From: Anolis carolinensis
Taxonomy: Eukaryota
Assembly: GCF_035594765.1 (NCBI RefSeq)
Contig: NC_085845.1
Coordinates: 145,530,897-145,594,896 of the forward strand
DNA length: 64,000 nt
Direction of reading: 5' to 3'
A program made the translations under genes and the position numbers. This document shows positions 8,649 to 61,034 of the stretch, piece after piece (the stretch's first letter is position 1; every line of letters starts with the position of its first letter). Under the pieces are notes generated by a model, which searched no databases, was not told the origin of the DNA, and saw nothing but the letters and a program-made list of their open reading frames with translations.

Positions 8649-8881
8649 ATAGAATCATAGAATAGTAGAGTTGGAAGAGACCTCATGGGCCATCCAGTCC
8701 AACCCCCCCTCTAAGAAGCAGAAAATCGCATTCAAAGCACCCTCGACATATGGCCATCCAGCCTCTGCTTAAAAGCCTCGAAAGAAGGAGCCTCCACCAC
8801 AGCCCGGGGGAGAGAGTTCCACTGCCGAACAGCTCTCACAGTAAGGAGGTTCTTCCTGATGTTCAGGTGGAATCTCCTTTT
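8649..8881 (-). mobile_element. CR1 LINE 3' fragment inserted into the Penelope ORF
   Basis: (ATTCTATG)n tail on the minus strand; peptide RFHLNIRKNLLTVRAVRQWNSLPRAVVEAPS typical of the CR1 ORF2 C-terminus. Confidence 0.93.
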
Positions 8882-9459
8882 CTCACCTCTGCAGGAGTCT
8901 ACAGTATACCATGCAGCTGTGGACAAGTCTACATAGGGACCACCAAACACAGTGCCCAAACACAAGTCAAAGAACATGAAAGGCACTGCAGACTAACTCA
9001 ACCAGAGAAATCAGCCATAGCAGAGCACATGATGAACCAACCTGGACACAGTATATTATTTGAGAACACAGAAATGCTTGACCACTCCAGCAATTATCAT
9101 GTCAGACTATACAGAGAAGCCGTTAAAATTAACAAGCATGTGGACAACTTCAACAGAAAAGAGGAAGCAATGAAAATGAACAAAATCTGGCTACCAGTAT
9201 TAAAAAACTCAAAAATTGGAACAGTAAATAAGAAGCAACACTCTGAAAACAGAGGAGTTCCAGACATGGGAACCAAGGGCAGCTAATGACTCCAAACAAA
9301 GGATGCCCCCGGGCAGGAGATGAAGCTATTCAATGCTAATTAAGGTGATTAACTACAACATTCACACTGGCCTCCAACTGACAAAGAGTTCTTCTCTCAC
9401 ACTGGACTTTCCACAGATATATATAAACCTTCCTTGCTTAGTTTCTCCATACCTCACAA

Positions 9460-29548: not shown

Positions 29549-30265
29549 TGTCACACCTCAGGTTAGCTTCACCTTGCTAAAGCCACCAGGCTGTACACAG
29601 AACGTAGTCTTTTGTAGTTTGTTAGGAAATAGGGAAAATATAGTTTATAAAAGTTTATATAGTCCAGTTCCAAAAGATAGTTACAAAAACAAGGCTGTAA
29701 GAAACAAATCCATAGAAACATTAGGCATGAAACAAGGTCCTTTCAAAATAAGCCAAAGTCCCAGAAACGAGAATACATCCAGGCTACAAGATAATACAGG
29801 AGAGCAGACTAATTCAAGCGTGGAAATTGCTTTGATGAAGTTTTCCCTCTCAGCAGACTGTTTTAATAGCATAACATGAAGGCATTTCTTTGCCCTTTGC
29901 CCTCCCTCTTATTTGCTATTTTGAGACTTCTGCGCAACCCCCGAAATTCCAAATGACTAGCCTGATCTAGAGAAGCAGCCTCATCGCTTTCAAGGCCACA
30001 GGGCTCTTTAGTGTTATCAGGCTGAGGCTGGGAGCTGCTCTCCCTTTCTGCTTCTTGCACCTGAAAACCATCATCAGTAACAACATCATTTCTTCCCGCG
30101 GGAAAGCCTCCCTGCTCCTCATCTCCCACAGCAGGAACACTCTGCACCTGAATCCCATAATTCCCATCAGAGTCACTTTGAAACTCATCCTGAACCTGAA
30201 TCCCATCATCTTGAAACTGCATCCCAGAATCCTCATCAGAGTCACAAAAAGGCTGAGTCACAACA
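29549..30265 (-). mobile_element. Solo LTR (Gypsy/BEL-like), 717 bp, containing an acidic ORF
   Basis: Minus-strand termini TGTTGTGAC...GGTGTGACA; perfect 5-bp TSD GGGAT at 29544-29548 and 30266-30270. Confidence 0.8.
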
Positions 30266-31399
30266 GGGATACATTCTGGACTGATTGCAAAGAACTCAGG
30301 TGAGGATTACCACGTGCGTATTAGACATTGCTCACTTTATTGGTGTTTGCCTAACTCTGAAGTTCTATAAAATACTTATAAACTTCATGTGTCTCAATCA
30401 GTGATGTGTGTAGATTGTACTGAAAGCAGTGCTGGGGCATGGAAGATCCTTTGGCCAAAGTTACTGCTTGTTGTCTGTTTGCCTTCCTGCTCAGTTTCAG
30501 GACTCATTCCAGTTCTGTGTTTCACTTAGGAGGGCTGATAGTTCCGCCCAACCCAACAGCTGAACCTTGTTTTAGTTCTACTTTAGGATTATTTCCAATG
30601 CCTTTTTAACTGTTGTAATGTGCTATAAGTCTTCAGCTGAGACAAAGATGGGATAGAAATAAATATAAGAATTTAATCAAGTTGCGCACATTCTAGTAGA
30701 GTGCACAATACAAGTTTTGAAAGCATCACTATTTTTGCTCCCTAGTCAATGTTATAAACTTTTTATTGAAAAAAATCTGTTTACTACAGATAAATCCTTA
30801 CACACACACACACAACTCTTATTTTGACACTGCTCATCTGAAATTTATAATTACTTTCCTCAGAACTTTCTACAGATAATAAATGCTCATGGTAAACTGG
30901 TTGAACTTTCTTTATTTTTCCACAGACATAACTGTCTGGCACAGCCTTTCAGTTTAACACATCACATTAATATTTCAATAGAAAAATTAACAGTGTCAGC
31001 TAGGAGATGGATCTAAACCAAATGTTCTCTAAACATTCCTCAAAACTGAGAAGCAAGAGACAAGATAATTTCAACTTGAAAATTATGGGTGTCAACCTGT
31101 GAATAACCTTTGGCTTTTATAGTTTTTTTATTATTTTGTGCACAGATATAAATCAAGCTGTAACAGGCTTCAGTCGAGCATACTGAATTTGCTGGCTCAG
31201 CTGAGATCAAACCTATATACTAGGCTTGCTCAAATAATTCGATTTCCCCGTTACCCGTTATTAATTCGTTACTTTCATTACTTTTGAAGCAATATACGGC
31301 CTTGATTGTCCACACGTCTGGATATCGCGGTTTCGAACCGCGAGAGGCTGTTTTTTGTTATGTCGTCGTTTTTTTCGTTAGGAAAAAAAGCTTTTGCAA

Positions 31400-31810
31400 A
31401 TCACCCAAACTCCCACCATTCCTAACAGCCTCAGGCCCTTTCCTTTTGCCCCTCAGCAAAAGGGGCGTCATGGGCTCAGCCAATGGGAGGGGGCGAGGGG
31501 GAAGGAGGCCGAGGAGGAAGAGGAAGACGGAGGGGGGAAATGGCCGCCGCCGCCGCCTCAGCTCAGGCCTGGTGTCTCTCTGTGAGCTGGGAAGGCGGCG
31601 GATGGAGCCGGGAATGGAGAGACCGAGAGAGACAGAGACACACAGAGATGGAGGATGGCGCGGGGCCCGGCGGTGAGGAGGAAGAGGCCCGGGATGTGAG
31701 GGGGTGTGGGCCAGGCCCGTCCTCGGCCGCTCCCGGGGAGGGAGGGAGGGAGGACTACGACTCCCAGGGGCCCAGATTCGCACCCTCCCTCCCCCCAATA
31801 CAGGTCTCCA
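31400..31810 (+). promoter_or_regulatory. CpG-island, promoter/first-exon-like segment inside the hAT element
   Basis: CGTCA 31466-31470, agCCAATg 31480-31484, purine-rich leader, YY1-like aaATGGCCGCC 31538-31548, (GCC)n, candidate donors GTGAG at 31582 and 31673. Confidence 0.6.
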
Positions 31811-33004: not shown

Positions 33005-35034
33005 TTTAACAAAGTTTCAGCCACAAAAACAAAGTTTCTGAAGTAGAACAATGACTTTCACAGTAAAGACAACCCAATTTAACAGGAAATAAGACTTTCA
33101 AACCAGGAACAGATTTCTGCAATTATTAAAAAATGGTTTATTATAAAAGCTATGAAAATTCGCCAAAAATCAGAGGATAAGGGAAACGTTCCAAATTTTG
33201 GTGAGCTATCAGTGTTAAATGTATTCTACCACTGTACCACATTTGAAGAAGATCACTCAAAAAATGAGGGCGGAAGAGTCCTGTAAAATCTCCCCTCGTG
33301 CTGTTTTTTTTGGCCACTGCGCATGCGCGTCCGCCATTAACGAATTAATTTAGAAACTAACGAATTTTCGTTAATTTCGAATTTTTTTGGGGGCAAAATT
33401 CGGAAATGACATCAGAAACGAAACGCTGGCGCCCCCTACTTTTGAAACGAGTTTAGAATCAATTTTTTCATGGATCGCTCAAGCCTACTATATACATCAC
33501 CCACACCAATATTTTGGGTTTTTTATTATTCCAAATTTGGCCTGAGAATAACAACATTTTATTTGTTACCCACCTCTCCTAACGGCTCAAAGTGGGGTAC
33601 AACAAAGTCAACAACATAATGAACATAAAATATATACAATAAAATACACAGATAAAAACACACCATTATGAAACATACACCAAATATAGGGTACAAAAAT
33701 CAACAGACAATGACAATAGAATGCAAATTCAAAACTCATGATTCAAAGTTGACTAGGTAGGTTAAAGATATATTTTCAATTGATGTCAATATTTAGCCAC
33801 TAGATTTATAAACTAGGTGGTGGTGTAGTGGTAAATCCCCAGATAATTCCCCAGAGTGCATACTTTTACTCTTTTCCTATCATTTTTACATCAAACAGAT
33901 GCAACTTGTCTTATGCATTCTAGGATATTTGTGCTCATTGATTTTGGCCAGTTTTAATCATAAAATTATCTCTTTTTAAGTCCAGTAATGGCCCAATTCT
34001 ACAATCAAATTTGCATCCTTAACTGAGATGCTTGGAACTGGAAGTGTTCTGGATTTCAGATTTTTTGGGGAGACTTTAGAATATGTGTATTTGTATATAC
34101 ATACATAATGACAAATCTTGAAGATGGTACTCAAGTCTAAACACTGCACTAAACACTGAGACTTTTGGGAGGACATTTTTTGTCCCTTGTTTCATTAGAT
34201 TAAGAAAAAATGAAAACATAAATTGCAGGCATATCTAACTGGGTCAGAAACAAGAATGGTTTTCCAGATGTTGCTTTGCTATTCTTATTATCGCTTACCA
34301 CTGAGTCTGTTGGCTACAGCTGAAAGAAGTTGTAAATCTACATCTGGAAAGGCATACATTCTCCACAAGAACAACTGTCCAATAATAAAATTTATTTATT
34401 TACTTCATTTTTACCCCAACTTTCTCACCTCATAGGGGACTCAAGGAGGCCTACAAACTCCAGCAAAGACTTCCCTGGTGCAGGTTGTGTTCAGAGGTTT
34501 TTCAGTTCTTGATTAGCTAATTTTTGAAGCAGAAAAGTGTTGTATCCCTAATAGTTGGATTTGTCCCTTGATTTGCCTGCCAGTTTATTATGTTTTAAAA
34601 ATCCTCTTTGGAAATATTTATTTAGTGCTTTATGTACACTAATTGATGTCAAGAACTTGGATTAATAAAAGATGAAATGCTAAGCCAATCTGCTAAGCCA
34701 ACAAGTCAAATTTAAACTCTCCCAAAAATCCCCGAGAGGTTTCTGAGAGCTTTCTTAACATATTTGTAACTCTCTGTTGAACTAAGAACAGCTTGCCGAA
34801 CATTGCAAGATCTAGAATTTCCATGGAATTATTATATCAAATATAGACCCTTTATCTAGAACTGTGATTTTCTGTCATGTCTGTAAAATTCCATTGCCTT
34901 TGAGTAGTCTTTAAAAAGTCTCCAACATAAGTTGGGTCTCCTTTATCTGAAATGTTTGGGACCAGTTTTTTTTTTAAAAAATCAGGCTTTCCCCCAGATT
35001 TTAGAATATCCCTATTTGCCTTTACATTGTGAAT

Positions 35035-35698
35035 GAGGGATAGGGGAAAGGGGGCTAGTCACATGTCTGACAGCGAGGACGAGGGGTTGTTAGAAGGACC
35101 AGTGTAGGATTTGGAGACCAGCATGCCTCTCAGCCTAGCTTAGTCAATACAAGAGATGAACCTTCAACATAAACTACCACTTCCCAGCAGGAGGAGCAAG
35201 CAGAGATCATTGTATCAGGGCAAACGGATACTTTACCATCTAAACGGGAGCATGCTGTTAATTGCAGGTCTGCATGATTAGCAGAGAAATGGGCTCTTCA
35301 CAAGCAGCACCTGAGAACATAGGGGGAAAGGTTTTCAAGTTTGCAATCCAGTTGCTGGAAGCAACATCTTACTTTGTGGTGAAACTCTGAATGCTTTGGA
35401 TTATTTGGCTTTGCTGACGTTGGACTCTATCTTGGCTTCTGCATTTGGATCTTGTCTTCCATCTTGGACTCTGCTATCATCAACCTGACCTGCTTTGTTG
35501 AATGTGGAACTCTCTCAATGTGTCTATGGTATTTGGACTTCGAAATTTGGACTTTGCATTACTTTCAACATTTGGTGTGTGCTTAAACACTAAGCTCCAA
35601 GGATGTAGCTCTGGGCTGTTTATATGTCATATCTGAGACTTTGTTTAACTACAGTGTTATTGGACTTGGAAAAACATGATGGGTTGATGTGTGACTAG
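35035..35698 (+). mobile_element. Putative decayed LTR-like element with a relic acidic ORF
   Basis: Purine tract 35035-35054, inverted ends ctagtcaca (35055-35063) / tgtgactag (35690-35698), relic ORF MSDSEDEG... from 35063; no TSD found. Confidence 0.5.
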
Positions 35699-59544: not shown

Positions 59545-59690
59545 TTGGGTTGCTGTGGGTTTTCTGGGCTGTATGGCCATGTTCCATGTTCCATGCTCCC
59601 AATGTTTCTCCCACATCTATAGCAAGGATCCTCAGGGGTTGTGAGGTCTGTTGGAAACTAGACAAGTGGGGTTTATATATATGTGGAATG
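59545..59690 (-). mobile_element. Older-subfamily Penelope pLTR fragment with decayed hammerhead
   Basis: Resembles the 48.6 kb copy (gtgaggtctgttggaaactag) more than the adjacent young element. Confidence 0.8.
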
Positions 59691-59693
59691 TTT

Positions 59694-61034
59694 GTTGAAA
59701 AGATCAGCAACCTCAATCTAAGCACCAAGGACATCCTGATCAGCTTTGATGTGGTGTCCCTTTTTACCAAAGTCCCAGTAGCTGACACCCTCACACTAAT
59801 CAAACAAAACTTCCCAGAAGACATCACAGCCCTGTTTCACCATTGCCTCACCACTAGCTACTTTCAGTGGGACACTGGATTCTATGAACAGAAGGATGGA
59901 GTGGCCATGGGGAGCCCTCTCAGCCCAGTAGTAGCAAATTTCTATATGGAATACTTTGAAAAACAGGCCCTAGAAACAGCACCAAAAAAGCCAACTGTTT
60001 GGTTCAGATACGTAGATGACACCTTCACGATTTGGAGCCATGGAGAGGAAGAACTCAGCAAGTTCCTGGACCATCTTAACAGCATCCACCCAAACATCCA
60101 ATTCACCATGGAAAAAGAAAAGGAAGGAAAACTGCCATTTCTAGATGTTCTGGTCATCCGCAAACCCAATCAACAATTGGGCCACACAGTTTACAGAAAA
60201 CCTACACACACAGATAGATACCTTCATAAAAACTCCAACCATCACCCAAGTCAAAAAAGGAGCACAATCAAAGCCCTGACAGACCGTGCACAAAGAATCT
60301 GCGAACCTCACCTCCTCCAAGGTGAACTTAACCACCTAAACTGGGCTCTACAGGCCAATGGATACTCCACCACAGACATCAGAAGAGCTGCAAGGCCAAG
60401 AACAAGTCATGAGAGTCAAGACAAAGATCCACCCAGAGGAAAGGTGTTCTTACCATACATCAAGGGAACTACTGACCGCATAGGGAAGCTGATGAAGAAG
60501 CACAACCTACAAACTATCTACAGACCCACGAAGAAAATCCAACAAATGCTACGGTCAGCGAAGGACAAGAGGGATCCTCTCTCTTCTGCAGGAGTCTACC
60601 GGATACCATGCAGCTGTGGACAAGTCTACATAGGGACCACCAAACGCAGCGCCCAAACAAGAGTCAAAGAACATGAAAGGCACTGCAGACTAATTCAACC
60701 AGAGAAATCAGCCATAGCAGAGCATTTGATGAACCAGCCTGGACACAGGATACTATTTGAGAACACAAAAATGCTGGACCATTCTAACAACTATCATGTC
60801 AGACTACACAGAGAAGCCATTGAAATCCACAAGCATGTGGACAACTTCAACAGAAAGGAAGAAACCATGAAAATGAACAAAATCTGGCTACCAGTATTAA
60901 AAAACTCAAGAATCAAAACAGTAAATAAAAAGCAATACTCTGAAAACAGAGGATTTCCAGACATGAATCAACCTAGGACAGTTAACGACTCTAAACAAAG
61001 GATGCCCCAGAGGCAGGAAGAAGACAGCAGATAA
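59694..61034 (+). CDS. Penelope-like RT + GIY-YIG endonuclease (N-terminally truncated)
   Basis: RT motifs SFDVVSLFTKVP, QKDGVAMGSPLSP, FRYVDDTF; GIY-YIG motif GVYRIPCSCGQVYIGTTKR..R..EH; no internal stops. Confidence 0.93.
   Translation, partial: VEKISNLNLSTKDILISFDVVSLFTKVPVADTLTLIKQNFPEDITALFHHCLTTSYFQWDTGFYEQKDGVAMGSPLSPVVANFYMEYFEKQALETAPKKPTVWFRYVDDTFTIWSHGEEELSKFLDHLNSIHPNIQFTMEKEKEGKLPFLDVLVIRKPNQQLGHTVYRKPTHTDRYLHKNSNHHPSQKRSTIKALTDRAQRICEPHLLQGELNHLNWALQANGYSTTDIRRAARPRTSHESQDKDPPRGKVFLPYIKGTTDRIGKLMKKHNLQTIYRPTKKIQQMLRSAKDKRDPLSSAGVYRIPCSCGQVYIGTTKRSAQTRVKEHERHCRLIQPEKSAIAEHLMNQPGHRILFENTKMLDHSNNYHVRLHREAIEIHKHVDNFNRKEETMKMNKIWLPVLKNSRIKTVNKKQYSENRGFPDMNQPRTVNDSKQRMPQRQEEDSR

Follow-up and report, generated by a model that had tools for sequence, protein, structure and literature searches.

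The DNA analysed here, referred to as the window, is a stretch of 64,000 nucleotides from Anolis carolinensis. In it an LTR-like element carries an acidic reading frame that ends in a decayed version of the RRSxR motif of HMGN proteins. The locus raises the question of what this frame once encoded, if anything. The earlier note had read it as a micro-protein starting at an ATG, had pointed to a second LTR at 29.9 kb with the same acidic-then-RRSxR design, and had suggested an overlooked class of such genes in squamate retroelements. The features concerned are:

35053..35681, + strand: old solo-LTR-like copy, family B; homology clear from 35066
35033..35058, + strand: purine-rich stretch directly 5′ of this LTR copy, 17/19 purines
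35063..35065, + strand: ATG private to this copy, no family start codon
35066..35322, + strand: decayed acidic frame, putative C-terminal tail of Pol/integrase
35263..35292, + strand: decayed HMGN-like motif site, reads CRSA*LAEKW
29549..30265, − strand: younger solo LTR, family A, with a 5-base duplication GGGAT on both sides
29866..30264, − strand: open 133-codon acidic frame from base 2 of the family A LTR; RRSLKIANKR at 29934-29905

The window copy and its LTR family

The letters were re-read and are as previously described: the ATG at 35063, the frame reading MSDSEDEGLLEGPV from it, a frame shift, two stops and CRSA*LAEKW at 35263-35292. The whole frame is broken by stops at 35105, 35170 and 35275 and by a frame shift near 35119-35128, and its end stop (35320-35322) is common to family B. 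Contigs of four public runs span these places; as they list no alternative letter at the ATG or the stops, these are not assembly errors. The first ∼10 bases of the copy are unlike family B, both of its ends are altered, and its target-site duplication is not clear, unlike in other family B copies. The purine stretch in front of it scores 29 against pol-linked tracts, the best score among 97 other copies being 28, and is either a leftover polypurine tract or a piece of a neighbouring repeat. Remnants of other dispersed repeats, with matches in two further loci (L115 and L141), lie at 34915-35035, directly 5′ of the copy. A search of the 64,000-nt window by tblastn and with a pol profile found no gag or pol remains. 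The window copy is a dead relic, from which peptide production is not expected.

Elsewhere in the window, a CpG-rich and GC-rich island at 31250-31800, between the two LTRs, is likely a host promoter or first exon. An open frame of 482 codons at 59586-61034 may represent the RT end of a Penelope-type element, and a related fragment is seen at 8750-9286. Tandem arrays with a period of ∼100-103 bases occupy 46275-46656 and 46982-47244, flanking another repeat.

The element is repetitive, as the earlier note had supposed. A first genome search yielded 45 matches from 40 scored of 130 candidates, the best non-self long match being 76% identical. The family B set comprises 122 loci including that of the window, some of them partial, from three genome searches (one of which gave 104 matches, 103 being taken in) and follow-up fetches. 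The copies are ∼600-660 bases long, agree with the window copy at 67-76% where matches are long, start with TG and finish with CA, and are dispersed among flanks unrelated to one another. A 5-base target duplication with at least four of five letters agreeing was seen in 12/23 copies with both ends recognisable, compared with 8/506 swapped pairs. The observed/expected CpG ratio is low, 0.15 vs 0.51 in younger LTRs. Family B is an old solo-LTR family.

No gag, pol or clear polypurine tract was found attached to a family B copy in the 122 loci. Two junction patterns for the family B 3′ LTR gave two matches, one in unrelated DNA and one in a known solo copy. A pol sequence near L003 and matches in L018 and L123 were considered as inner parts and rejected: the pol beside L003 has its own younger LTR, and the matches in L018 and L123 are part of younger elements. 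The family B copy at L018 (G000 C1) is interrupted by a younger, pol-linked type of Gypsy LTR that shares the tail design, and L123 contains a similar nearby match.

Rather than building a consensus, we counted breakage positions across the natural family B copies. Within the first 330 bases, stops present in at least a quarter of the copies occur at just two places in the frame from LTR base 2, namely the fifth motif codon (33/110) and the frame end (78/107), compared with 9, 8, 5, 8 and 7 shared-stop positions in the remaining five frames. The base-2 frame is thus the only one that runs without shared stops to its end, save one decayed codon, and in one copy (L208) it is unbroken for 93 codons through RRSARLAEK. 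The frame is real but has no start codon in family B. The ATG at 35063, proposed as the start, occurs in 1/55 aligned copies (the window's own) and in 0/97 copies with an intact 5′ end; it is private because the 5′ end of the window copy is altered there. No codon of the family B frame is ATG in at least 8% of copies.

The frame is open from LTR base 2 into the motif in 9/93 copies, and with respect to base 2 the motif falls into the three phases 44/27/22 times among the 93, a modest excess that is as expected for a decaying frame. Twenty-seven copies align across the motif with no gap. In these, the variation at codons 1, 5 and 10 is split two ways, as methyl-CpG decay would leave it, and codons 2, 3, 6, 7, 8 and 9 are mostly unchanged. 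Natural loci read RRSxRL in 5/122 and RSxRL in 23/122 cases. This is in accordance with the restoration of CRSA*LAEKW to RRSARLAEKR by reverting CpG decay. Sub-types of family B are visibly different and all have the frame and the motif; two copies, L009 and L208, differ synonymously.

Pol frames that run into the 3′ LTR

The second LTR has no real DNA similarity to the first, in agreement with the earlier note: the best blastn match between the window copy and the family A LTR at 29.9 kb is 19 nt (E 0.07). Family A is abundant (2002 candidates, the top 40 at 94-96%). Its base-2 frame is open for at least 132 codons in 14/20 copies with a recognisable start; codon 15 is an in-frame ATG that copies share, and a Pfam search of the frame gave no match. 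A G-run pattern preceding the family A start was found at four distinct loci, one of which (L064) has pol in front. At L064/L069 the LTR start lies, via the tract, in frame behind a pol with SH3 domain and chromodomain. This is a degenerate two-LTR element with Pfam matches to gag, protease, RT, SH3 and chromodomain, of which the protease match is just above its cut-off and the RT and chromodomain pieces are below theirs. Family A is tied directly to a chromodomain pol.

Two other family A arrangements were tried as full elements and rejected. Copies 8.9 kb apart proved to be a tandem duplication: in L061 (G000 C4:13801300-13811299) identical 1086-base stretches, 8914 bases apart, hold the LTR with its flanks, representing a tandem duplication or an assembly repeat. 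For L049, with two A-type LTRs 1 kb apart, there was no gag or pol match in the 30 A loci.

The integrase end of L064/L069 was used as a query to find relatives (150 scored of 9163 candidates), and the best 30 were examined. An automatic call of tract and junction was obtained for 25/30 of these integrase-chromodomain loci and none for 5/30; in L097 the call was 39 bases too far into the LTR, in the same frame. The pol frame of the relatives passes the polypurine tract without meeting a stop and enters the U3 of the 3′ LTR from LTR base 2. The LTR-encoded part makes up the last 83-153 codons of pol and forms an acid-rich linker behind the chromodomain, and from where RRSxR[LI]A begins it is 13-28 residues to the pol stop. 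An uninterrupted frame leading from pol through the motif was seen at 12 of the 25 loci with an automatic junction call. Of all 30 loci, 18 have an intact base-2 frame with the motif, eight more have the motif or a variant, and four are without it by these patterns. Arg 1, 2 and 5 and Ser 3 are present in 16/18 intact tails, the other two having Lys at position 2, where the tails were picked by the motif pattern. Several young families have Met at codon 2. The chromodomain of the pol-linked loci keeps, by eye, aromatic residues at the three cage positions (defined in the available text of PMC3059260). A looser second element, Asp-Arg and then Leu plus an aromatic residue before Arg/Gly (DRLSWRG, DRASRLEFRG), stands just before the motif and recurs in the otherwise unalignable tails of L071, L072, L073, L075, L076, L077 and family A.

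In L069, L233 and L234 the two LTRs enclose gag, protease, RT, SH3 and chromodomain, and database relatives have full domain sets. L233 is full-length, with LTRs 99.9% alike and a pol of 1256 codons that ends 92 codons inside the 3′ LTR. The 10-mer after its 5′ LTR is complementary to LTR position 416; in the old element L069 no complement of at least seven bases was found between the corresponding stretch and the LTR. By the Tf1 self-priming model, the transcript of L233 would start behind the pol stop. Its tail frame would then lie 5′ of the transcript start and would therefore, in this one element, be readable only as the end of pol.

These observations bear on whether the frame is an independent micro-protein translated from an ATG inside the LTR. 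The in-frame ATG of family A and its long open frames would suit such a protein, as would the Met at codon 2 of several young families and the host gene models that splice such frames in. However, family A is young and open frames are expected in solo copies without selection, family B has no shared ATG, and the frame is open to the LTR edge and continuous with pol, 5′ of the putative transcript start in L233. We consider a free micro-protein very improbable; where an element still has its inner part, this frame forms the end of pol.

Family B is linked to a chromovirus pol by architecture, not by homology: the phase, the first codon (Val), the acidity, the motif near the stop and the LTR ends. 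The link takes this form because no family B copy with an inner part was found in the 122 loci or by the junction patterns. Scored with a profile of the pol-linked tails, the frames of family A and two from family B outdid each of 200 shuffles, and a third from family B outdid 199. Nine open B frames were covered by this test, and the three that beat their shuffles are those with a less decayed motif; the six with decayed motifs scored no better than 5 to 127 of theirs. We consider it very likely that the family B frame is a Pol tail. It could have been inherited from an autonomous ancestor and never been translated in a non-autonomous family B, for which the missing inner part and the missing ATG speak. 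But the differing sub-types all keep the frame and the motif, the differences between L009 and L208 are synonymous, and family A also seemed to exist only as solo copies until the pattern search gave one pol-linked copy. An untranslated family B is improbable.

Conservation and distribution of the tail motif

The strict motif RRSxR[LI]A occurs in 16/25 pol-linked LTRs compared with 1/2500 dinucleotide shuffles, and 17/18 of the looser motif matches are in the base-2 frame. The sequence before the motif changes fast: identity among the main tail types is 5-31% and that between family B and the pol-linked tails 8-22%, vs 61-96% for SH3 plus chromodomain. For nine representatives, pS and pN were 0.83 and 0.18 over the motif compared with 0.57 and 0.38 mid-tail, and dN/dS over the tail was 0.33, in tails chosen for having the motif and with 36 pairs that are not independent. 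The Ser codon of the motif is AGY in the pol-linked families and family A and TCT in family B, and the non-basic positions Ser 3, Leu/Ile 6 and Ala 7 are also kept. A weak test on indels showed multiples of three in 9/21 tail indels vs 51/227 after the stop. These patterns indicate selection on the motif at the peptide level.

Chance, or a promoter element in the DNA that happens to translate to RRSxRL, would be another explanation, and a TATA-like site does lie close to the family B motif in 66/110 copies; the reading in the window also requires three decayed codons. The shuffles, the near-saturated synonymous change and the two disjoint sets of Ser codons largely refute this explanation, which we regard as extremely improbable. 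Taken together, the two LTRs share their acidic-then-RRSxR design well above chance and keep it at the protein level, as the earlier note had sensed.

Tails of this kind are already present in databases. The UniRef entries named "Gypsy retrotransposon integrase-like protein 1" from Anolis carolinensis (P0004-P0009) include the tail and end in the motif; Pfam recognises integrase, SH3 and chromodomain in them and assigns the tail to no family. A Protein Atlas search of the tail gave no usable match. Anolis polyproteins retrieved with a query without the motif end in RRSARIAA. Among 120 database relatives, the motif pattern occurs in 4/98 with a located chromodomain, all from Anolis, and a search of 50% clusters gave seven proteins, of which only P0040 and P0125 have the full tail. 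Several Anolis gene models (P0001-P0003, P0039, P0040 and P0125, with labels DOCK11, BPI, cation ATPase and RT protein) hold LTR tail frames as exons, which are either annotation errors or exonised solo LTRs.

Viper proteins (P0017 and P0129-P0132, from Crotalus and Vipera) have the same DS-VV junction after the chromodomain and an acidic tail, with an RRRRQ-type run instead of the motif. These viper proteins do not support the idea of a squamate-wide class. One viper chromovirus protein is labelled PEG10, probably wrongly. One frog protein reads RRSRRL by eye, and most fish relatives end shortly after the chromodomain.

The proposed tether and known nucleosome-binding systems

From these results we propose that the stretch in the window derives by decay from a solo LTR, that its family was likely an extinct Gypsy chromovirus of the Tf1/sushi type, and that its frame was probably the C-terminal tail of the parent integrase, with a predicted role as a nucleosome tether. 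As in the relatives, pol would have passed the polypurine tract and entered the U3 of the 3′ LTR from base 2. Thereby a fast-changing, acid-rich linker of 83-153 residues would have come to follow the chromodomain, and in it RRSxR[LI]A would stand 13-28 residues ahead of the stop. The arginines of the motif may dock on the acidic patch of H2A-H2B as in HMGN, Dsup and Dot5, so that integrase would grip chromatin twice, by its chromodomain and by its tail. Such two-point binding is plausible from the sequences. By the established course of reverse transcription, U3 would be copied into both LTRs, and recombination between LTRs, likewise established, would leave solo LTRs with the tail frame and without its start. 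The window copy would be such a relic, now decayed.

Acidic-patch binding is known for several short arginine motifs, described here from the available text of the cited papers. HMGN uses RRSAR to bind the patch, its fifth residue serving as the anchor, and Dsup uses RRSSR (PMC12487698). In Dsup RRSSRLTS and yeast Dot5 RRSARIAT the patch is contacted via Arg 1, 2 and 5 of the motif (PMC13347269, PMC12487698), and in Dot5, Arg 6, 7 and 10, which belong to RRSARIAT, are required (PMC13347269). What the Anolis tails have in common with all three is a disordered setting in which RRSxR precedes Leu/Ile and a small residue; the likeness to the HMGN core RRSARLSA that had been pointed out is close. 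The Anolis Pol ending RRSARIAA matches Dot5 RRSARIAT over seven residues. Unlike in HMGN, the Anolis motif belongs to a retrotransposon polyprotein that lacks HMGN protein architecture; it follows an acidic linker at the far C-terminus, and its binding is predicted only. Nor does the frame correspond to a free small nuclear protein with its own start codon, as members of the HMGN family are: family B has no ATG, and in relatives the frame is continuous with pol. A complex prediction for a natural Anolis tail with H2A-H2B scored 0.02, a value that speaks neither for nor against binding; for HMGN2, too, prediction failed (PMC12487698).

The same Pol tail might have another job, its basic motif serving as a nuclear localisation signal or as a general DNA/RNA-binding patch. 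The motif is basic, with Lys/Arg next in most families, and RRS followed by Lys/Arg would fit a localisation signal or a kinase site. Signals of the former kind have been described in LTR-element integrases (available text of PMC3605345), and the vipers, which keep the acidic tail with another arginine run, suggest that charge may outweigh the exact motif. A basic patch would not account for Ser 3, Leu/Ile 6 and Ala 7, which are kept across main tail types only 5-31% alike, or for the seven residues matching Dot5. We therefore find this reading unlikely, though less so than the alternatives discussed above, and lean slightly towards the motif being an acidic-patch anchor on the integrase tail, as predicted by analogy. 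In its full form the proposal is evenly balanced: the Anolis chromovirus integrase would be a two-part chromatin reader, in which the chromodomain is joined by an HMGN-type arginine anchor that is encoded in U3 and directed at the acidic patch of H2A-H2B. This anchor would persist in five or more tail types that cannot be aligned, and phosphorylation of its Ser might switch it off, as in HMGN.

Little is known of the routes of vertebrate Gypsy elements to chromatin or of their choice of it, and their integrase is usually assumed to have no functional part beyond the chromodomain. A conserved eight-residue motif at the very end of Pol, near-identical to the proven nucleosome binder of Dot5, offers a testable second tether. 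If true, no earlier acidic-patch anchor would have been described on the integrase of a retrotransposon, and host genes would have, in thousands of solo LTRs, a stock of ready-made nucleosome-binding exons. A U3-encoded Pol tail also accounts for lizard solo LTRs that seem to hide small acidic genes. We found no paper on an HMGN-like or acidic-patch motif on a retrotransposon integrase in a search outside of which Repbase/Dfam, supplements and most subscription papers lay, and where a remark on pol-LTR overlap may exist in a repeat library. Already known are pol entering the 3′ LTR in plant CRM elements, viral acidic-patch tethers, and the Anolis tails inside unannotated UniRef proteins.

The closest viral parallels are foamy virus Gag CBS and probably MLV p12, which tether the integration complex via the acidic patch (available text of PMC9040877). 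These and KSHV LANA resemble the proposed anchor in that a short arginine motif holds an integration complex or an episome on nucleosomes, but their carriers are products of Gag or proteins of herpesviruses rather than integrase, and the LTR does not encode them (PMC9040877). That review has, in its available text, no mention of "retrotranspos". In plants, pol of the CRM group A reaches on into the 3′ LTR, bearing a targeting motif, the CR motif, the binding partner of which is described as unknown in the available text (PMC3059260, PMC3605345). There the CR motif replaces the chromodomain, whereas the Anolis elements keep the chromodomain 5′ of the tract and add their motif 70-125 residues into the LTR. 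The Anolis motif would be a further case from the "untapped realm" of HMGN-like motifs to which the available text of PMC12487698 refers.
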